Of a stretch of DNA of 64,000 nt, positions 1,898-56,938 are shown piece after piece (position 1 is the first letter of the stretch; each line of letters opens with the position of its first letter). This DNA comes from a virus (taxonomy: Duplodnaviria > Caudoviricetes), in the IMG/VR virus record IMGVR_UViG_3300029305_005443, positions 64,001 through 128,000 of that record; one strand, 5' to 3'. The translations under genes were made by a program, and so were the position numbers. The notes beneath the pieces were generated by a model. The model searched no databases. It worked only from the letters and a program-made list of their open reading frames with translations, and was not told the DNA's origin.

Positions 1898-3765
1898 ATT
1901 TGAAATTTGTTTCCGTGGAACTTTTCAATTTTATGTCATTTGAAAATGCCTTTGTTGACCTTTCGGAAAACGGTTTTGTTAAAGTTTGCGGAGAAAATAA
2001 CAACATAGTTGACAATGCAACTAGCAACGGAAGTGGAAAGAGTGCAATCTGGGAAGCAATTAATTGGTGTTTAACTGGAAATACTATTAGGGGTTCAAAG
2101 GATGTGGCAAGACAAGATTGTGAAGATGGATGCCTTGTTAACTTGATCTTTAAAGTAGATTCTGATACATATGAGATAACTAGAACAAAAAATCATATAA
2201 AATATAAAACCAATTTATTCATTAAAAAGAATGGAGAAGATGTCTCAGGAAAAGGTATTCGTGACACAGAAAAACTTCTTGTTCAATATTTACCAGATCT
2301 GGATTCCAATCTTGTAAACTCAACTATAATTTTAGGTCAAGGCCTTCCTATGAGGTTTACAAACAACACCCCGTCAGGAAGAAAAGATTTGCTTGAGGTT
2401 CTTAGCAAGTCAGATTTTATGATTTCAGATCTTAAGGATAGAGTTTCTGAGCGTAAGAATTATTTGTATGCAAAAAAGAAAAATGTTGAGAAAGAAGAAA
2501 ACAAGTATGAAACCTTGATGGAACTTTCACAAAATAGACTTGATTTTCTTAGACAGACTCTTGAAGATCTTAAAAATGAGGACTTGTCAGATTGGTCAGA
2601 TAAGAAAGAATCCATTGAACAAGAAATTTCTAAAATTGAAAATGATATGGATGATTTGTCTCACAAATATGGTCATTCATTGAACGAAGAAAAAGATTTA
2701 CTTGTTTCTAAAAAGGTTTCTTTATATAAAGATTCTACTACGGCTAGTGAGCTCAAAACAACAGAAAAGGGAATTTCTCTAAATGACATTACAGCAAGAG
2801 TTTTTGAACTACAATCAGAAATAAAGCGTGTAGAATCTGAGATAAACAAGCTCGAGTCCATTAAGGATGTTTGCCCGACTTGTGGGCAAAAAATACCAGG
2901 TGTCCACAAAGCAGATACAAGTTCTTTACACAATGAACTTGACTCATTGAAGTCAAAACTTTCGGAAAAAATTACTGAAAAAACAACTTTGTCTGAAAAG
3001 TTTGACAAAGAAATTCAGGAAATTAAAGATGAGTATGCTTCTTATATTACGGAAGTAGATAAACAAATTAATGGTGTATCTTCTGAAATTATCAAATTTT
3101 CTGACTTGCAAGATAAACTTTCAGAAAAACTTGAAGAAATTAAACTCATTGAAAACAAGATCGAATCTCATGAGTCAAATATAAAAGCTTTAGAGAATGA
3201 CATTAAGTCAGAGGTTGATAGTGAGAGTGAGTCTCACAGGATTTACATTGAAAAGAAGACAGAACGAGAAGACATTGATAAGCACCTTGAAGTTCAAAGC
3301 AGTTTTGAAACAGTACTTAAAAGGGATTTCAGAGGAATTCTTCTTCAAAATTGTATAACATATATAAATAGCAAAGCCAAGGAATATTGCAAAAAGATAT
3401 TTGATACAAATTCAATAGAATTTGCATTAGATGGAAACAATATTTCTATTAGTTATGCTGGTAAAGAATACGAATCTTTGTCTGGTGGTGAAAAGCAAAA
3501 GATTGATTTGATTATTCAATTTTCCATTAGGGATATGCTTTGTACTTACTTGAATTTTAACTGCAATTTGCTGGTACTTGATGAATTAACTGACAATTTG
3601 GATTCTATCGGGTGCAAAAAAGTAATTGATTTCATTTCAACAGAATTAACTGATATTGATAGTGTATTTATAATAAGTCACAGAACAGATCTTGAAGTTC
3701 CTTATGATAAAACTTTGACTGTTACCAAAAATAATCAAGGAATAAGTAGTTGTGTTTTACTCTAA
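1894..3765 (+). CDS. Rad50/SbcC-like ATPase (T4 gp46-like)
   Basis: Walker A NGSGKS, coiled coil with CPTCG zinc hook, LSGGE signature, LVLDE Walker B, ISH. Confidence 0.93.
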   Translation: MNLKFVSVELFNFMSFENAFVDLSENGFVKVCGENNNIVDNATSNGSGKSAIWEAINWCLTGNTIRGSKDVARQDCEDGCLVNLIFKVDSDTYEITRTKNHIKYKTNLFIKKNGEDVSGKGIRDTEKLLVQYLPDLDSNLVNSTIILGQGLPMRFTNNTPSGRKDLLEVLSKSDFMISDLKDRVSERKNYLYAKKKNVEKEENKYETLMELSQNRLDFLRQTLEDLKNEDLSDWSDKKESIEQEISKIENDMDDLSHKYGHSLNEEKDLLVSKKVSLYKDSTTASELKTTEKGISLNDITARVFELQSEIKRVESEINKLESIKDVCPTCGQKIPGVHKADTSSLHNELDSLKSKLSEKITEKTTLSEKFDKEIQEIKDEYASYITEVDKQINGVSSEIIKFSDLQDKLSEKLEEIKLIENKIESHESNIKALENDIKSEVDSESESHRIYIEKKTEREDIDKHLEVQSSFETVLKRDFRGILLQNCITYINSKAKEYCKKIFDTNSIEFALDGNNISISYAGKEYESLSGGEKQKIDLIIQFSIRDMLCTYLNFNCNLLVLDELTDNLDSIGCKKVIDFISTELTDIDSVFIISHRTDLEVPYDKTLTVTKNNQGISSCVLL

Positions 3766-4570
3766 GCCGCATAATGTAACTTATACTCAAATGGCAATTT
3801 GGATAGATGAGAACGGTCATAAACCAGATTGTGATTAGCAAATGTTATTTGAGTATCTGTATCATTTGTGCTATATATTGTCTTACAAATGGAAATATTT
3901 TAATACTTAGAAAGATTATGATGAATTTGCAATTTTTTCTGCAGGCATCCTATTTAAAAGATATGTTTAGTAGAGTCAGCTACAGCCAGTTAAGAGCAGT
4001 TTAAATTATATCAAAAAAGTTTTAAGAATATATAAAATTCAATTTCAAAAAGAATTTTTTTAGGAAAATATAACTCGTGACATTTAGGATGAAAATGTAA
4101 AATATAATATTTCTTTTGAATATGAATTGTAGGATAAATGTTCCTAGTTAAATAAAGTTGAATTTTTAGTGTATCTTCAAGATATTCCGAGAACAATTTT
4201 GGGAAGTTTGACTAACAGCATACCAAAGAAAAAACATTCTTCTGAGTTTACAAATATCTATTTAAGTTGTTTACTTACATTTCTTGATTTGATTACTCCT
4301 TCTGTTCAGGAACAAAAGCAACTCGACTCAATTCAAAGAAGTGATTATATTTATACAAATTTATACTTGTAGTTGTATAAAATTCCGGATGGGTATAAAC
4401 CTGTCTTGTATCATCTTGATAAAACATATGAGGATTATATTTTATTATTGGTGAAACGAATACGAGCTTCTATAAGAAATGATTTGAAAGAACTCTTATA
4501 TCAACATTTTCCGATAAATGATCTTTATTAGGACATATTGGAACAATTTTAGGAAAGCAATGATAACTGA
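3752..4570 (+). CDS. TAG-rich protein (272 aa in code 15), possible gp55-like sigma factor
   Basis: One frame from GTG 3752 to TGA 4568 interrupted only by 11 TAGs; fills the gap exactly; function is inference. Confidence 0.6.
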
Positions 4571-10174: not shown

Positions 10175-10367
10175 AGACTTTCATAAAAAAATAATTGGTT
10201 ATGTTGATACCGACACCACTACTGGTGTAAAAACAGTTAGAACATTTGGTATGAAAATTGTTGGAACATATGACCCAAAAACGGACCTTACAAGAGATTT
10301 TTATAAAAGGATAATCGGTCACGGTGACCTCACAATGATGTTGTTGCAACAGGAGAATTCAAAATAA
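10152..10367 (+). CDS. hypothetical protein
   Basis: ORF with TAATG overlap into the next gene. Confidence 0.65.
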   Translation: MIQRQQIKDFHKKIIGYVDTDTTTGVKTVRTFGMKIVGTYDPKTDLTRDFYKRIIGHGDLTMMLLQQENSK

Positions 10368-26987: not shown

Positions 26988-27410
26988 ATGTCTTGCATTA
27001 AGCTCAAAGTTAAAGACAAATCAATTTATTTTGGTGAAAATTCAGGGTTTTTTGGGTCAACTAGAATTCCAGGTAATATTATGGACAGATTAAATACTAA
27101 TATTGAGAAAGAAAATAATAACCATATTATAACTATTAATTTGTGTGATGATTATGGAATTATTGATGAATATATTAATCCATCGAGTGAAACTTTTAAC
27201 TTGAGCTATGATACATTAATCTCCATCCTTAATCACATTGGCCAAGTTCTTTATGCACCTTTTAAACACCTTAATTCAAAAACAAGTTCAATTTCAGAAG
27301 AAATTAATTTGATTAGAAACATTAGAACTAATTTTAACATTTTATCTTGGTTAGTTAAATATTTTGAACTTAATAAAAATGATGAAGTAAATATTACATA
27401 TAATTGTTGA
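26988..27410 (+). CDS. hypothetical protein
   Basis: ORF. Confidence 0.6.
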   Translation: MSCIKLKVKDKSIYFGENSGFFGSTRIPGNIMDRLNTNIEKENNNHIITINLCDDYGIIDEYINPSSETFNLSYDTLISILNHIGQVLYAPFKHLNSKTSSISEEINLIRNIRTNFNILSWLVKYFELNKNDEVNITYNC

Positions 27411-27435
27411 CAAAGCATAAATTATGTAATATAAT
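27406..27435 (+). promoter_or_regulatory. sigmaA-type promoter upstream of a small ORF and the suppressor tRNA
   Basis: TTGACA...TATAAT at about 17 nt spacing. Confidence 0.7.
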
Positions 27436-27748
27436 AAAATTATAAATTAATGGGAATTTAGATGACTGAAGTAAAATATAAAGTTGGTGACAAAACATTT
27501 TTAGAATATCCAGCTGCAAAGGAATATTCTTTACAAACTCACAATGAAATAAAAACAGAATACATTGAACATTGGAATTATAATTATAAAGAATATAATG
27601 AGGATATGATACACACGGCATCAAAAAATTAACCTCCTTTCTCAAAGATGCCCAAAAGAAATTTAACCAAGCATTTTCTCTGCTAAATTAAAAATTCATT
27701 TTTTGTTCCTTCTTGTCCTGCAGTTCTTTGTGCTTGTTTACATAATAT

Positions 27749-27836
27749 TCCCCCTTCGCCTAGTGGTAGGGCGCCGGTCTCTAAAACCGTTATACCTTTT
27801 GATGGGGTTGCCTGGGTTCAAATCCCAGAGGGGGTG
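27749..27836 (+). tRNA. amber suppressor tRNA (anticodon CTA), probably Gln
   Basis: TCCCCCT/AGGGGGT acceptor, GCCT/GGGC D-stem, CGGT-CT CTA AA-ACCG anticodon arm, 21-nt variable region, CTGGG-TTCAAAT-CCCAG T-arm, G73. Confidence 0.9.
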
Positions 27837-27841
27837 TTCAA

Positions 27842-27915
27842 TGGGATGTAGCGCAGCAGGTTAGCGCGTCGGTCTTATAAACCGCAGGTCATGGGTTCGA
27901 GTCCCATCATCCCTA
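27842..27915 (+). tRNA. tRNA-Ile(TAT)
   Basis: Cloverleaf; CGGT-CT TAT AA-ACCG anticodon arm; A73. Confidence 0.88.
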
Positions 27916-28018
27916 TTCAGAATCTTGGATGCAGTAGTTCTTATTAGAGAATGCTGCATATGCTCTAATTAAAACTCCGGGGTTCTGTAGACAAATCAAT
28001 TGGTAAAGGGTGCAAATT

Positions 28019-29239
28019 ATGCTGAATAAAAAGGGAGAAAGAGAGTTAGCATATCTTGTAAAAATAGATGACATTCAGCCAATTGTTGGCTCTGACAACT
28101 GCGAGTCCGCTGTTGTGGGGGCTTGGCATATTATGGTCAAAAAAGGTACATTTAGCGTTGGTGACGTTGCAATCTATTTTGAAATTGATTCTCTTCTTGA
28201 TATTACTAAACCAGAGTTTGCTTTTATGGAGAAATATAAAGGCAAAGTAAAGACTCAGCGTTATACTTTCGGCGGTAAAGGAAACTTTATTAGTCAGGGT
28301 CTTTTGATGCACCCGAACGATTTTGGTTGGGTTACTATTATTGATGAGAATGAAATTCAGTATGGTGTTATGACCAATACAAGTAAGCCTGATAGAACCC
28401 TCGATAATGAATCGCGGTTTCTTACAGAACTTCTTGGTGTTAAATATTATGACCCCGCCGATGAACAGAGAAAAGGAACTGGCAAAAAGAAACAGCCTGC
28501 TATGCCTAAATTCTTCTATATGGGAATTGGAAGAAAGATGATGAGAGTAAAATGGCTTAAGCCTATTCTCATTAAGATTTTTGGGAAGAAAGTTAAAGTG
28601 ACTCCCTGGCCTTATTGGGTTGTAAAGACAGATGAGGAGAGGGTTCAGAATATCCCAGATATTATACACCAAGAAGATAAATGGATTGCCACAGAAAAAA
28701 TTGATGGTTCTTCTTCTACTTATACTATGATTAGGCACGGTAAGAAATTTGAATTCTATATGTGTTCCAGAAATGTTGTCTTTACAAGTAAAGAAGATAA
28801 ATGTTATTATGATTCCAACATTTATGTTGAAATTGCTTCAAAATATCCATTTGAAGAAACATTGAAGAAGTACCTTATCGAAAATAAAGATGTTGATTGG
28901 GTTACAATACAGGGAGAAATCTATGGACAAGGTGTTCAAAAAAGAGATTATTCTATCGACCACAAGGACTTCGTCGCCTTCAATCTAATTGACTCAAAGA
29001 GGGGAAGGTGGAATTCTTGCGAGGCTAAAGAATGGCTTTCTCAATTTGGAATCCCGTTTGTCCCAATCCTTAATGACTCTTTTGAAATGCCGGATACAGT
29101 AGATGAACTTCTTGAATTCGTAAACGGAAATTCTGTGTTAGATGGAAAGCCAAGAGAAGGATTTGTTTTTAGAAGCAAAGACGGAATTAAGAGTTTCAAA
29201 GCTGTTAGTAATGAGTACCTTTTAAAATATCATTCATAA
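28019..29239 (+). CDS. RNA ligase (Rnl2/DRB0094 family)
   Basis: N-terminal OB-like domain, KTDEERVQN, TEKIDGSS (motif I), QGEIYG, REGFV, SFKAVSNEYL. Confidence 0.9.
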   Translation: MLNKKGERELAYLVKIDDIQPIVGSDNCESAVVGAWHIMVKKGTFSVGDVAIYFEIDSLLDITKPEFAFMEKYKGKVKTQRYTFGGKGNFISQGLLMHPNDFGWVTIIDENEIQYGVMTNTSKPDRTLDNESRFLTELLGVKYYDPADEQRKGTGKKKQPAMPKFFYMGIGRKMMRVKWLKPILIKIFGKKVKVTPWPYWVVKTDEERVQNIPDIIHQEDKWIATEKIDGSSSTYTMIRHGKKFEFYMCSRNVVFTSKEDKCYYDSNIYVEIASKYPFEETLKKYLIENKDVDWVTIQGEIYGQGVQKRDYSIDHKDFVAFNLIDSKRGRWNSCEAKEWLSQFGIPFVPILNDSFEMPDTVDELLEFVNGNSVLDGKPREGFVFRSKDGIKSFKAVSNEYLLKYHS

Positions 29240-31212: not shown

Positions 31213-31337
31213 AGGCACTGACAGCATAATTTTTAGGACTGAAAATCTTAAGTTGTGCCTTGTTACTTTAAAAAGACGCTTGCAGCAATTACTTCTAAAC
31301 ATTTGAGTTGTAATCAAAATTGGTTAATGGCGTCTTG
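31213..31337 (+). ncRNA. CAGCA(A) stem-loop RNAs, copies 3 and 4
   Basis: AGGCAC-TGACAGCA...GTGCCT-TG (31213-31262); AAGACGC-TTGCAGCAA...GCGTCTT-G (31273-31337). Confidence 0.7.
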
Positions 31338-31362
31338 GTGCGTATTTAGAAAGAGGTTTGAG

Positions 31363-32910
31363 ATGAGTTTTTTAGATAACTTAAAAAATGAAAATAACTT
31401 AACATTTACTGAGAATGGTGCTGTTGCATTATCTTCTACAATGAATGCTTGTTTGGATGCTTTTGGCTCTCTTGGAGCTATGAAAAACTCCAATGAAAGT
31501 GTTATTCTTGATACTTTCAAGAAAGCATTTGCAGAAGATAGAAAACTTGCCATGAAGATTCTTTTCTATATGAGGGATGCCCGTGGCGGTCAGGGTATGC
31601 GCAGGGTTTTTAGGACTATTGTTACTTATCTTGCAAACAATCACCCTGAGTTTGTTGAGAACAATTTTAAGAATTTTGCAGAGTATGGAAGATGGGACGA
31701 TTTTCTTTGTTTGTTGGATACTGATCTTAAAGAAAATGTTTTGTCCTATATTAAATCACAACTTCTTGAAGATGTTTGCAACTGGTACGATAATAAGCCA
31801 GTTTCTCTTCTTGCAAAGTGGCTTCCTTCTGAGAATGCATCTTCTCAGAAAACTATTGAAACAGCCAAAACCATTAGGAAATATTTGGGGTGGTCTCCGA
31901 GATCCTATCGTAAAACCCTCTCTAAGCTTCGCAATTATTTGAATGTTGTTGAAGTTAAAATGTCTTCCAATGAATGGAACAAAATTGATTATGCATCTGT
32001 TCCTGGTAAAGCATCACTTAATTATTCTGATGCCTTTACAAAACACGATGAAGAAAGATATATTAATTTCCTTATAAATACTTCTTCGCTCAATGCAAAT
32101 GCACTTTTCCCGGTAGACATTATACATAAAGTTATTGAATTAAATAATAGAAGAAAATGCTCGAGCAAGGATAGGATCTTGCTTGATAAGATGTGGAAAT
32201 CTCTTCCAAATTATCTTGAAGGCAAAGAAGAAACAGGCATTTGCATGGTAGATACGTCGGGTTCTATGTATGGGACTCCGTATGAAGTGGCTCTTTCTCT
32301 TGGCATTTATTGCGCTGATAAGTGTAAAGGACCTTTTAAGAATCATTTCATCACCTTCAGTGAAAATCCTGAGCTTGTATCCTTGCAAGGGGCAGACCTT
32401 GTTGAGAAAGTTTCTAATATTAGATGCATCAATGCTGGAAACACTAACTTTGAAGCAGCTCTTGATTTAATTCTAGACACTGCTGTGAAGTATGGAACCC
32501 CTCAGGAAGATCTTCCTAGTAAGTTATATGTAATTTCTGATATGCAGTTTGATGTGGCAAGGTGCGAGCGGCATTACACTGGCTGGTCCTTCAAGTATAC
32601 GCCTACTGAGCCATTTATGGAAAAAATGCGTAGAAAATATGAGGCACACGGTTACAAGCTTCCGTCCATTGTATATTGGAATGTTCGCGCATCTGAATGC
32701 GGAATGTTTCAGCAAAAATTCGATGGTGAAGATTGCGCCATGGTTAGTGGGTATTCAGCTTCGTTATTCAAATCCATTATTGAGGGTACCACTTATGAGG
32801 AGGTGGTTTCTGAAGATGGTAAGTCAACTAAGAGAGAAAAAATTGACCCTCTCACTGTTATGTTGACAACCCTTAATAATCCCAGGTACGATAAAGTCTG
32901 GGTCGGATAA
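31363..32910 (+). CDS. DUF2828-family protein (TROVE/Ro60-like helical region plus vWA domain)
   Basis: TENGA, RDARGGQG, YGRWDD, AKWLPSE, DTSGSM MIDAS, NTNF, ISDMQFD, YWNV, VSGYS; start after AGAAAGAGG SD. Confidence 0.88.
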   Translation: MSFLDNLKNENNLTFTENGAVALSSTMNACLDAFGSLGAMKNSNESVILDTFKKAFAEDRKLAMKILFYMRDARGGQGMRRVFRTIVTYLANNHPEFVENNFKNFAEYGRWDDFLCLLDTDLKENVLSYIKSQLLEDVCNWYDNKPVSLLAKWLPSENASSQKTIETAKTIRKYLGWSPRSYRKTLSKLRNYLNVVEVKMSSNEWNKIDYASVPGKASLNYSDAFTKHDEERYINFLINTSSLNANALFPVDIIHKVIELNNRRKCSSKDRILLDKMWKSLPNYLEGKEETGICMVDTSGSMYGTPYEVALSLGIYCADKCKGPFKNHFITFSENPELVSLQGADLVEKVSNIRCINAGNTNFEAALDLILDTAVKYGTPQEDLPSKLYVISDMQFDVARCERHYTGWSFKYTPTEPFMEKMRRKYEAHGYKLPSIVYWNVRASECGMFQQKFDGEDCAMVSGYSASLFKSIIEGTTYEEVVSEDGKSTKREKIDPLTVMLTTLNNPRYDKVWVG

Positions 32911-33193: not shown

Positions 33194-33267
33194 AGGGGTT
33201 TCGGCAAGTGGTTCAAGCCAACGGACTTTGACTCCGTGACTCAGTAGTTCGAATCTACTAACCCCTG
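33194..33267 (+). tRNA. tRNA-Gln(TTG)
   Basis: AGGGGTT/AACCCCT, ACGGA-CT TTG AC-TCCGT. Confidence 0.93.
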
Positions 33268-33308
33268 CTGCACTGTTCGTTCATTGTGCAACCTCCTTTC
33301 TTTTTTCT

Positions 33309-52951: not shown

Positions 52952-52974
52952 ACTATTAAGAATGTGAGTTGTCA

Positions 52975-55026
52975 ATGACAAACATAGATGAAAAACAATT
53001 TGAAGGTTTATCCAGAAAAGAAAAGGAATATGCCTTAAAAATTTTAGAAGAATTTTCAAGAACTGGAAAATCAGATACATATAACGATCTGATTTATGCT
53101 GATTATGCGGAAGTTCCAGTTGATGTTGAAACATTCTTGAGGGATAAAAGGTACCTTGGAACAGGGTTGACTAATGATGATGGGAAATTTACTGTTTTCC
53201 CATATTGGATAGATACTTTAAAAAAGATTTTTCCTTCTAACATTGATACTGCATATAATACTTTAGTTTTAACTGGTGGAATTGGTCTTGGCAAATCATT
53301 GGTTGCTGTACTCTGCCTTCTGTACTTATTGTATAGAATGCTTTGCTTGAAGAATCCATATGTTTTCTATGGGTTACAACAAATAGACCACATTACTTTC
53401 TCATTTATAAATATAACTCTTGATGCAGCTAAGGGTGTGGCCTGGGCAAAGTGCCAGGAATTGCTGAAAAGTAGCCCGTGGTTTTTAGAACACGGCACAT
53501 TAAGCAAATCTCAAGATCCGGAATGGTCTCCTAACGGGGGAATTGAACTGATCTATGGTTCTTTGCCAAGGCATGTTTTAGGTAGAGCTGTTTTTTGCTC
53601 ATTTGAAGACGAAATTAGCTTTTAGCCAAATCAAGATGTAGAAAAACAAAAACAAAAAGCAAAAACTCTTATAAGCACTGTTGACGCTCGTATGCAATCG
53701 AGATTTATGAAGGGTGAAAAATTACCCACATTAAATATTATTGCTTCTTCTAAAAGGACAGAACAGTCATTCCTTGAAACATATATTGATATGAAAAAGA
53801 GGAATGAGTCAAAAACTACTTTAATTGTTGATGAACCTCAGTGGGTTATTCGTACTGATAAAGCAAGTTCAAGAACTTTTAATGTAGCAGTTGGAAATAA
53901 ATTCTTAGACTCAGAAGTTCTTCCTTTGAGTGTCACAGAACAAGAATTGCAATTATATAGGGATAAAGGATTTAAGATTCTTCAAGTTCCTTTTGGTTAT
54001 TACGAGCAATTCTTAGACGATATTGATATTGCTTTAACTGATATTGCTGGTATTTCTACAACAAATAGTCAGAGTTATATTTCTGGTGTTAGATGGGCTA
54101 AATGTCGAAAAGAAGGACTTGAAAACCCATTTAATAAAGAGATTTTAGTAGTTGGCAATGCACCAGATGATAAAGCCCAATATAGTGATTTCTTTGATTT
54201 ATCAAAAGTTCCTTCAAAATATAAGTATAAACCATTGTATATCCATCTGGATATGTCTCTTTCTGGGGACAAAACTGGTATTGCAGGCACGTGGATAATC
54301 GGTAAAAAACCACATGAAGAAGGACAAGTAGAATCTAAAGAATTATATTATCAACTTGCATTTTCTGTTGCTATAAAAGCACCTAAGGGCTATCAAGTTA
54401 GTTTTGAGAAAAATAGACAATTCATCTATTGGTTGAGAGACCAAGGATTTAAGATAAAAGGTGTAAGTTACGATACCTTCCAATCAGCAGATTTAAGTTA
54501 GCAATTACAAGCTCATGGATTTAATTGTGAAACAATTTCTGTTGATAGGTTACAAGATAAAATCTGCAAGCCTTATCTTGTTTTTAAGAACGCAATCTAC
54601 GAAGAACGATTAATTGTATATAATACAAAGTTGCTGACGGATGAGATTATTGGTCTTGTTAGAGATGGGAATGGAAAAATAGACCACAGCCCTTCTGGCA
54701 TAAACTCAAAAGATACTGCTGATGCTGTTTGCGGAAGTTTATATAATGCTTCACAACACGCTGAAGAATATGCTTTTGATTATGGTGAAGATTTAGATCT
54801 CATCAAAAAAGCAAATGATGCTTCTTCTGCTATGTCTTTGGAAAATAAAAAGCAAATTGTTTTAGATATGGAAGAAGAGCTCAAAAACTTTAGATTATTT
54901 TAGAATCCATTTGTAGTACAATAGGCACAACAACAATCTAAACCTACAGGGTTGGATTTTGGGTTTGGTAAAGCAGTGCCTTATGGTGGACAATCTTATG
55001 TTCAAGATGGTATGCTCATTTGGTAA
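52975..55026 (+). CDS. terminase large subunit (4 in-frame TAG)
   Basis: TGGIGLGKS Walker A, FEDE Walker B, HLDMS, DTFQS and KDTADA nuclease motifs in one frame. Confidence 0.92.
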
Positions 55027-55036
55027 GTGAGGAAGA

Positions 55037-56938
55037 ATGACTGATATTGAAACTACTGGATCTGCTTTTGCTGAAGATCCATTGTTATATGGTAAACAAA
55101 TAGAAACTGTTCCAAAGCCAGAAAAGACTTTTGGTGTTGACACTCACGACACCTTATTGACAGATTTGGCTTCTGTTCAGGCTTCTCAAATTGATATGTC
55201 TGAAATAAACAAATTTACTAACATTTCAGACAACAGAAATGAACTTTATTCTTTGATTGACCAAATGGGTGCTGATAGTAGGATTGCTGCTGCACTTGAA
55301 ATCTACGCAGAAGATAGTACCGAGAAAAATGAACAAGGTCAGATTGTTTGGGCAGAATCTAGTGACGGTGATGTTGCAAAATATATTAATTTTCTTCTTA
55401 AGTCATTAAATATTGATAAAAATATTTATAAGTGGGTTTATTCACTTTGTAAATATGGAGATCTTTATATCAGAATGTTTAGAAAGTCTGATGTTGAAGA
55501 TGATTTGTTTGATGAAGATGATGATGAGAAGAAAGCCCTTAATGAAGAAATAAAAGTTAAAGTGTATCCAAAGAGTGATAAGTTAGTTCATTATGTTGAG
55601 ATGGTTCCTAACCCAGCAGAAATGTTTGAATTAACTAAATTTGGTTCCACTTATGCATATATATAGGCTCCATCTACTCTTGCAGCGGATTATAACTATA
55701 CTGGTGAAGAAGCTTGGCTAACAAACGCACAGAATAGATATTTATATAAATTTAAGAGAGATGATATTTATATCTATCAACCTACTGAGTTTGTTCATGC
55801 TTGTTTGGAAGACAGCCCAACAAGATTTCCTGAAGAAGTTAGAATATTTAGGACAGATGCCGATTATGAAGATGACAAATGTAGTTTGAATTATTAGGTA
55901 AGGAGAGGTTCTTCACTTCTTTCTAATATATTCAAAATCTGGCGTGAACTCATGCTTCTTGAGAATTCTGTTCTTCTTAACAGAATTACAAAATCCTCTA
56001 TTGTTAGAATGATTTAGGTTGAAGTTGGTGATATGCCGGCTGAAAATGTAAAGCCTCATTTGTATAGCATTAAATCTATGATTGAATAGAAAGCAGCTAT
56101 AAGTGAAGGTAAAAAATTATCCGAATATACTAATCCAGGTCCTATTGAAAATAATGTTTATGTGCCAACCAGAAACGGTCAAGGTGTCATAACAACAAAT
56201 TAGATAGGTGGAGATGTTGATGTTAAGTCACTTGTTGACTTGGATTATTTCCTTGATAAATTGTATGGTGCATTGAGAATTCCAAAGCAATACATGGGTT
56301 CAACGGACGATTCCACTGGGTTTAATGGTGGAACTGCATTGTCTCTAATTTCTGCTTCCTTTGCAAAAATGGTTAAGAGGATTTAGTCTACAATGAAGCA
56401 GACCATTACTGATATGATTAATGTTTTATTGTATGACAAGCAGCAGACTCAATACATAAATAAATTCTCAATCAATATGGTAGGTCCAATGACTGAAGAA
56501 GATAAGAATCGTCAGGAAAATCTTAGTTCTGAGATTCAAGTTGCTTCTGATGTTATGAATTTACTTGGTGATATTGATGACCCAGTCATTAAACTTAAAC
56601 TTCTTAAAGCTTTACTTTCAAGTTGCATTACAAATGAGGAAGTCATAGAGCTCATTCAAGAACAAATTGATGAACTTGAAGCAGAACAAGAAGGAAGTGA
56701 AGAATCATCTTCTGAAGAACAAGACATTAACATTGATTTTTCAGATGAGGGTGAGTCATCGTCAAGTGATTTTTCTGGTGGTCTTAATGACTTTGCCTCT
56801 GATGGATTGGATCTTGGCAATGAAGCCCCATCTGTTGAGACTTCAGTTCCTGAAGAGAATGGTGGGGAAGAAACTGTTTCCGGTCTTCCAAGTATGAATG
56901 AAATAGGATTAGATTTCGCAGATACAACTCAATTTTAA
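55037..56938 (+). CDS. portal protein, T4 gp20-like (6 in-frame TAG)
   Basis: CKYGD, IWRELMLLE, VEVGDMP, DYFLDKLYGALRIP, KRI*. Confidence 0.9.

Follow-up and report, generated by a model that had tools for sequence, protein, structure and literature searches.

The 64,000-nucleotide (nt) stretch analysed here, hereafter the window, covers bases 64001-128000 of the 143,914-bp viral contig IMGVR_UViG_3300029305_005443 and contains, among a cluster of transfer RNA (tRNA) genes, an 88-nt tRNA with the anticodon CUA whose variable region forms a second hairpin resembling an anticodon arm (Table 1). The contig has a G+C content of 35%, is 94% complete and carries nearly all of its long open reading frames (ORFs) on one strand. 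It was found in animal faeces metagenomes, and its genes for a T4-type portal, a prohead protease, a tail sheath, SbcCD-like nucleases and NrdD mark it as a distant T4-like myovirus. Its genome has 13 tRNAs, and the CUA one is the only one with a stop anticodon.

The Rfam tRNA model matches this tRNA over its whole length (50.8 bits against a cut-off of 29; E 6e-8 for the window; model positions 1-71), and ARAGORN calls a CTA-anticodon tRNA at 27748-27837. In the Rfam alignment the non-standard pairs are 1:72 and 27:43, and the variable region has an 18-nt insertion. Dissected base by base, U1 (27749) faces U72 (27835) and is unpaired, while C27 (27774) lies opposite U43 (27790), so that the top pair of the decoding stem is open and the stem is effectively one of 4 bp. 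The CUA triplet sits in the 7-nt loop CUCUAAA (27779-27785), flanked by U33 and A37, and the branch made by the acceptor and T arms is a normal 7/5. An initial annotation, made from the sequence alone, had listed the CTA anticodon, a 21-nt variable region with an ACCTT/GGGGT stem, the 1:72 and 27:43 mismatches and G73, all of which we recovered. The ACCUU/GGGGU stem is also part of the minimum-energy fold of the tRNA, whose z-score of -0.88 is uninformative alone. The same annotation had called the tRNA type-II shaped, a description that does not hold: the D arm, with its 4-bp stem and 7-nt loop, is of class I, and the extra arm is not of the Ser/Leu/Tyr type. Of the class II features the tRNA has the long variable arm (21 nt) and lacks the enlarged D loop and the isotype body; moreover, the phage's own Ser and Leu tRNAs look different. 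Contigs from four DNA sequencing runs are identical to the window across the tRNA and hence offer no natural variation.

Table 1. Positions of the tRNA, its parts and the other features discussed, in window numbering.
Feature	Position	Strand	Remarks
Sigma-70-type promoter match, 12/12 (TTGACA, 17 nt, TATAAT)	27407-27435	+	313 nt upstream of the amber tRNA
Putative amber suppressor tRNA(CUA), 88 nt	27749-27836	+	Rfam RF00005, ARAGORN; CCA not encoded
Acceptor 5' strand UCCCCCU	27749-27755	+	2:71 is C-G, 3:70 is C-G
D arm, class I	27758-27772	+	4-bp stem GCCU/GGGC, 7-nt loop AGUGGUA, G10 present
Decoding anticodon arm CCGGU-CUCUAAA-ACCGU	27774-27790	+	Anticodon CUA at 27781-27783
Variable region, 21 nt	27791-27811	+	Contains the spare anticodon-like arm
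T arm CUGGG-UUCAAAU-CCCAG	27812-27828	+
Acceptor 3' strand AGGGGGU and discriminator G73	27829-27836	+	G73 at 27836
tRNA-Ile(UAU)	27842-27915	+	Starts 5 nt downstream of the amber tRNA
Conserved 685-aa late gene	52969-55026	+	4 in-frame TAGs
T4-type portal gene, PF07230	55037-56938	+	6 in-frame TAGs

The D and anticodon arms match those of tRNA-Trp. The anticodon arm had been said to be one base from tRNA-Trp arms, and two comparisons bear this out: a related tRNA with an identical anticodon arm matches Escherichia coli at 94-97% over 35 nt, the sole match being the annotated tRNA-Trp in 5426 of 5426 E. coli genomes, and a phage tRNA-Trp in locus L021 contains exactly CCGGTCTCCAAAACCG. A blastn search with the window tRNA itself gave no match in the E. 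coli genomes, and a crude comparison of its body with 234 phage tRNAs singled out no isotype. The body is Trp/Gln-like and not Ser-like, and its ancestry may lie with Trp or with Gln(CUG), since the arm of either differs by a single base. The phage's own tRNA-Gln(UUG), at 33194-33268, is unlike it, in keeping with the earlier proposal that the amber tRNA does not derive from that gene.

The late genes of the phage contain up to 11 in-frame TAGs each (the portal has 6, and neighbouring late genes have 4, 10 and 11), while a block from about 41 to 100 kb, which holds the tRNA array, is almost free of TAG. When 120 full-length portal homologs are aligned, the TAGs at 56087, 56201 and 56384 fall on columns that are Gln in 120/120, 114/120 and 120/120, and the remaining three lie on variable columns. 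In the 685-amino-acid (aa) protein encoded next to it, the TAG at 54499 stands where 115 of 127 homologs have Gln. In neither protein is a TAG found at a position where Ser, Trp or Glu is conserved. TAG therefore reads as Gln in this phage, and the alignments leave us in very little doubt that the tRNA inserts Gln at UAG, as the initial annotation had proposed for an amber suppressor. We also noted a 272-codon ORF at window positions 3752-4570, beside the SbcCD-like genes and amid a TAG-poor early region, which has 11 in-frame TAGs and is denser in TAG than any other long ORF of the window.

The spare arm of the window tRNA presents a 7-nt loop, UUUUGAU (27797-27803), in which the Gln anticodon UUG occupies positions 27799-27801. 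The loop is closed by C27796-G27804 and C27795-G27805, followed by A·G, U·G and A-U. Searching IMG/VR with the exact 16-nt decoding arm, and nothing else, returned 74 contigs, among which we found 34 distinct CUA tRNAs with a variable region of at least 15 nt; 28 of them form one family. All 28 members have G73 and the open C27·U43, their arms measure 20-24 nt, and their first pair is never G-C (U-A in 9, A·C in 7, U·U in 5, A-U in 5, U·G in 1 and G·U in 1), with G-C or G·U at 2:71 in 26/28 and C-G at 3:70 in 22/28. One member, in a distant syntenic relative whose two upstream genes are 35-39% identical (L082), has an identical acceptor stem, including U1·U72, together with compensatory changes in the D and T stems, which argues that these odd features were inherited and kept. 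No conserved gene or tRNA neighbour goes with the family, and the arm is found in unrelated phage types.

Aligned on the central triplet, the 24 distinct arms of this set share a 7-nt loop, [C/U]-U-[C/U]-U-G-A-[A]. In anticodon-loop numbering, U33, U35, G36 and A37 are invariant over the 24, and position 34 is C in 17 and U in 7, so that the triplet is always one of the two anticodons for Gln, CUG or UUG. Both closing pairs, 31:39 and 30:40, are of Watson-Crick type in every arm (24/24), with four pair types at 30:40. Over a gapless alignment of 19 columns, the share of paired cells is 74% (55% in shuffles) and covariation scores 0.52 (0.20 in shuffles); none of 500 shuffles scored as high, and registers slid along the arm gave 0.05-0.37. 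Two further members of the family still have UUG or CUG in the arm. The motif U-[C/U]-U-G-A occurs in 27 of the 34 long CUA arms, against 1.8 expected from shuffled arms. It is absent from four long CUA tRNAs that are Ser/Leu/Tyr-like, and neither it nor its Trp counterpart, U-CCA-A, is present in any of 67 ordinary Ser/Leu/Tyr arms from the same loci. Sense tRNAs lack the extra arm altogether (0/18 for tRNA-Gln and 0/14 for tRNA-Trp). Between the decoding arm and the spare arm there are 0-2 unpaired nt, and the 3-5 nt that follow the spare arm are the size of a normal variable loop; judged by sequence, either hairpin may be the "extra" one. On this comparative evidence, the spare arm imitates an anticodon stem-loop that bears UUG, an anticodon for Gln, and is selected as a copy of the anticodon loop. 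We provisionally define from it a family of suppressors with two anticodon arms, characterized by a Trp/Gln-type body with G73 and any first pair other than G-C, and by a hairpin whose 7-nt loop has U33-like and A37-like positions around the cognate anticodon; by its sequence, the window tRNA belongs to this family.

A similar arrangement is seen in opal suppressors. Among UCA-anticodon tRNAs, which were retrieved by their decoding arm alone, all 17 of the long ones with a Trp body carry U-CCA-A (0.5 expected), in a hairpin with 5-6 covarying pairs. These 17 have G73, with A-U at 1:72 in 15 and G·U in 2; 88% of the cells of their arms are paired, against 52% when shuffled, with covariation scores of 0.93 and 0.26, respectively. 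U-CCA-A is missing from all of the remaining 10 UCA tRNAs with long arms, which are mostly Sec-like, and no arm carries the other motif. One of these opal tRNAs (L151) belongs to the closest IMG/VR relative of the phage described here (L007, IMGVR_UViG_3300026549_000075, with a portal 44% identical), where the arm reads CCUGG-UUCCAAC-CCAGG. Of the 13 in-frame TGAs in that relative, 8 stand opposite Trp in our phage. The relative is thus recoded at TGA and not at TAG, and the two recodings therefore alternate in this T4-like lineage.

The correspondence between arm and amino acid was put to the test by a 146-kb phage, IMGVR_UViG_3300028805_000058 (G001, loci L203-L210), whose tRNA (L083) has a decoding arm identical to that of the window tRNA and a spare arm with U-CCA-A. 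This tRNA, at 10262-10354, is the only CUA tRNA of that phage, lies 8 nt past a tRNA-Trp(CCA), and has the spare arm GAGG-UGUCCAAAG-CCUC. The arm predicts that TAG is Trp, and across 80 related loci the TAGs of G001 do align to Trp 814 times and to Gln 5 times. At single sites in the portal and neighbouring late genes, Trp is found in 59/59, 56/57, 64/66 and 64/65 homologs, and in the terminase in 69/80, the other cells being mostly stop codons; a DUF285 repeat protein of G001, taken as an internal TAG control, was uninformative. In 17 other phages with Gln-type arms, the conserved column under TAG is Gln at 35 of 53 sites, with no signal for Trp or Glu. Across phages, then, the amino acid that the aligned genes indicate for the stop codon is the one whose anticodon the spare arm displays. 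A preprint by Borges states that only TAG-to-Gln and TGA-to-Trp have been seen in phages; given that statement, the TAG-to-Trp reading of G001 may be undescribed.

How would such a tRNA be charged? The 144-kb genome encodes no GlnRS/GluRS, TrpRS/TyrRS, class IIa synthetase, GatB, CCA-adding enzyme or release factor. The suggestion of the initial annotation that the tRNA might need a special synthetase is not supported, the genome having no synthetase, amidotransferase or release factor, and host enzymes must therefore process and charge the amber tRNA. Glutaminyl-tRNA synthetase (GlnRS) depends on U35, G36, pairs 1-72 and 3-70, N73 and 10-25, and glutaminylates amber tRNA-Trp (PMC9976931). A change at G36 costs GlnRS much of its activity, and the rule on the first pair also serves GluRS2 plus amidotransferase in organisms without GlnRS (PMC9976931). 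Phage tRNA(CUA)s have been called known substrates of E. coli GlnRS, and six that were tested suppressed UAG in an E. coli cell-free system (PMC12636597). In the window tRNA, G73, the openable first pair U1·U72 and G10 fit Gln identity. The decoding CUA offers U35 followed by A36, and the spare arm offers U-U-G, with its G36-like base.

We propose that the amber tRNA is probably made from the part of the genome that keeps to the standard code and would read several hundred UAGs of the late genes as Gln. Either host GlnRS, or a non-discriminating GluRS followed by GatCAB, would load the Gln. The second hairpin would offset the missing G36 by displaying UUG between U33-like and A37-like bases, so that the anticodon-binding part of the host enzyme reads the spare arm and the ribosome reads the CUA arm; that a host enzyme binds the spare arm, and which enzyme it is, we infer from comparison. 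The open C27·U43 probably raises the efficiency of UAG decoding, as an unpaired 27:43 raises suppressor efficiency in other tRNAs (PMC13092985). As for geometry, the spare arm might swing down beside the decoding arm, or the two arms might swap places on the D stem, with one conformer for the synthetase and the other for the ribosome. On present evidence we consider that the spare arm probably acts as an identity element for charging by the host. The broader idea, which we favour by a narrower measure, is that phages evolved tRNAs bearing two tandem anticodon arms, one facing the stop codon and one serving as a sense-anticodon identity tag, so that swapping arms would reset the code: CUA with a Gln arm for TAG as Gln, UCA with a Trp arm for TGA as Trp, and CUA with a Trp arm for TAG as Trp.

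Several observations weigh against this reading. In the amber set, a register shifted by +2 also pairs fairly well (70% of cells, score 0.37). The window arm is itself a weaker mimic than the family consensus, with two G-C pairs and then an A·G mismatch, and the minimum-energy fold of the window tRNA favours a 5-bp stem with a 5-nt loop. Its pairs 2:71 and 3:70 are C-G and not the G-C of E. coli tRNA-Gln. The route by which an arm leaving the core would reach an anticodon-binding domain is not geometrically obvious. In G001 the body is Trp-like as well, so that the effect of the arm is confounded with that of the body. Short CUA tRNAs with U1·C72 and G73 stand beside the long one in some phages: at L013 (1226-1394) and L069 (340-512), a long tRNA with a Gln arm and such a short tRNA (75-78 nt) stand 3-4 nt apart, and a tandem long/short CUA pair also occurs in L035, L048, L054, L067, L068 and L072. 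The long CUA tRNAs of L025, L026, L027, L043 and L296 have plain hairpins with no anticodon motif; the last, on a 130-kb contig in a bin for a sheep-rumen Clostridia metagenome-assembled genome (MAG), combines a tRNA-Glu-like D arm with a 22-nt arm that forms a 6-bp hairpin with a GUGA loop.

A further adverse case concerns Glu. In 32 relatives of G001 (loci L240-L283), TAG falls on conserved Glu columns at 47 of 50 conserved sites, which implies that TAG is Glu there, a recoding not described in the literature that we searched. A single phage clade thus holds members with TAG as Glu, TAG as Trp and TGA as Trp. A spare arm of Glu type was predicted for these relatives, and the prediction failed: their CUA tRNAs are short (74-79 nt) and armless, and combine a variable loop of 4 nt with a D arm like that of tRNA-Glu (arrays L291-L294, G002-G005). 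Taken together, the armless Glu suppressors, the short tRNAs beside long ones and the plain hairpins imply that the spare arm is common and not obligatory. We note, after the fact, that the arm goes with Gln and Trp, identities for which anticodon bases are major determinants (PMC9976931); for some GluRS, the D stem and the missing nucleotide 47 dominate instead (PMC9976931).

The alternative that we take most seriously, while considering it unlikely, is that the tRNA is an ordinary suppressor of the supE/Su7 type and that its arm is a passenger, either a duplication relic or a stabiliser, GlnRS using U35, G73, the unpaired 1:72 and G10 only. Amber tRNA-Trp and other CUA tRNAs are indeed glutaminylated without an extra arm (PMC9976931), the short U1·C72/G73 tRNAs beside long ones and the TAG-to-Glu suppressors do without one, and in opal suppressors the spare and decoding arms are much alike, which is what a duplication would leave behind. 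However, a neutral relic should decay, and here four loop positions are invariant over 24 arms whose stems covary. In addition, position 34 varies between the two Gln letters only, and the triplet tracks the amino acid, be it Gln or Trp, up to the CUA tRNA of G001, which goes with TAG as Trp. Nor does any sense Gln or Trp tRNA, or any class II arm, show the arm or the motif.

The arm could also be a handle for a partner other than a synthetase, such as a phage RNA-binding protein or a modifying enzyme, or could divert host anticodon nucleases directed at tRNA-Gln or tRNA-Trp. Links between phage tRNA arrays and counter-defence are common, and an RNA ligase (PF09414) and a DUF2828/DUF7788 protein are encoded within 4 kb of the amber tRNA. 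We nevertheless hold such a role to be improbable, as the phages that carry the arm are of unrelated types and have no conserved genes next to it, and a nuclease decoy gives no reason for an arm borne solely by stop readers and matching the assigned amino acid. Finally, the concern of the initial annotation about SerRS is a reasonable one, and the proposal that the long arm makes the tRNA a substrate of SerRS, or its Trp-like body one of TrpRS, with UAG read as Ser or Trp, can draw on a long extra arm and G73 being the main Ser identity elements, on SerRS ignoring the anticodon (PMC9976931) and on the Trp-like D and anticodon arms, but is very hard to sustain when TAG lies on invariant Gln columns and never on conserved Ser or Trp columns, the D arm is of class I, C2-G71 is a listed anti-determinant against E. 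coli SerRS (PMC9976931), and the arm, with its unpaired linkers and internal mismatch, is unlike the arms of the phage's own tRNA-Ser.

Regarding the surroundings of the gene, the tRNA-Ile(UAU) that follows is probably co-transcribed with the amber tRNA. It too has U1·U72, with A73, whereas the first pair is matched in all the remaining tRNAs of the array. The promoter match upstream may drive a 60-codon ORF together with the two tRNAs; contigs of other organisms from the same samples pile up on 27385-27461, so this promoter-like element may be shared. The RNA ligase and the DUF2828/DUF7788 protein mentioned above, both identified with Pfam, are encoded inside the tRNA array, at window positions 28010-29239 and 31255-32910. 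Beside the amber tRNA, no theta or HDV-like ribozyme or other Rfam family was found. Concerning relatives and host, 10 kb of late genes had no megablast match among GenBank phages, a related-locus search with an 809-aa late protein returned none, and a search of bacterial and archaeal assemblies yielded no relative of the portal. Searched with the decoding arm, those assemblies gave a single family member; its contig is binned with a Bacillota MAG, too slender a basis for naming a host.

If the spare arm does serve as an identity tag, decoding would be separated, within a single natural tRNA, from the identity that governs its aminoacylation. The question of how recoded phages have their suppressors charged efficiently by host enzymes that rely on the anticodon would then have a simple answer, a copy of the cognate anticodon carried by the tRNA itself, and one that makes clear predictions. 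The tag would moreover provide a sequence rule for the amino acid assigned to a stop codon, one that correctly gave TAG as Trp in G001, and possibly a design idea for suppressor tRNAs in synthetic biology.

Phage suppressor tRNAs and the recoding of TAG to Gln are already well described. In the code-15 phages (crAss-like, Lak, phAss-1 and the gem-named clades; 10.1101/2021.08.26.457843, PMC10607447, PMC9523058), a phage CUA tRNA likewise accompanies TAG as Gln, mainly in late genes, with no phage synthetase and a host presumed to use the standard code. Those papers describe no extra arm or anticodon copy and leave the charging mechanism open, and one states the charging of the suppressors of recoded phages as an open question (10.1101/2021.08.26.457843). 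As far as can be told, the distant T4-like myovirus described here stands apart from the named code-15 clades. Neither an extra arm on phage suppressors nor an anticodon copy inside a tRNA was found in the literature searched, which excluded most subscription journals, and the spare anticodon arm is new to that literature.

Among cellular suppressors, the closest are Su7 (tRNA-Trp with CUA) and supE (tRNA-Gln with CUA) of E. coli, which are charged by GlnRS and share with the window tRNA a Trp/Gln-type body, G73, a weak first pair and the insertion of Gln. Each of these laboratory suppressors is the product of a single base change, is charged less well and has a variable loop of 5 nt without any second arm, whereas the window tRNA has a true mismatch at 1:72 and C-G at 2:71 and 3:70. 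Class II tRNAs (Ser, Leu, bacterial Tyr, Sec) and allo-tRNAs (PMC5389517) also have a variable region of more than 10 nt that forms a hairpin, and G73 is that of tRNA-Ser. The window tRNA differs from them in its class I D arm, its 7/5 acceptor/T branch and an arm loop that is a conserved copy of an anticodon loop. Its open decoding stem recalls tRNAs with 4-bp anticodon stems, in which the top pair is open and readthrough in E. coli by tRNA-Thr and tRNA-Trp with CUA anticodons is raised (PMC13092985); those cases are near-cognate or engineered, and here the mismatch is conserved in a natural family of cognate suppressors.

The nearest precedent for the proposed role of the spare arm comes from mRNA. 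In the operator of the thrS mRNA, which is bound by ThrRS, and in the mRNA of yeast AspRS, the synthetase reads a hairpin that copies its cognate anticodon loop (PMC9976931), and in thrS a change of the anticodon-like triplet switches the synthetase (PMC9976931). Those mimics are regulatory sites in mRNA that are not aminoacylated. In contrast, the mimic described here would sit inside a working tRNA, beside another anticodon.

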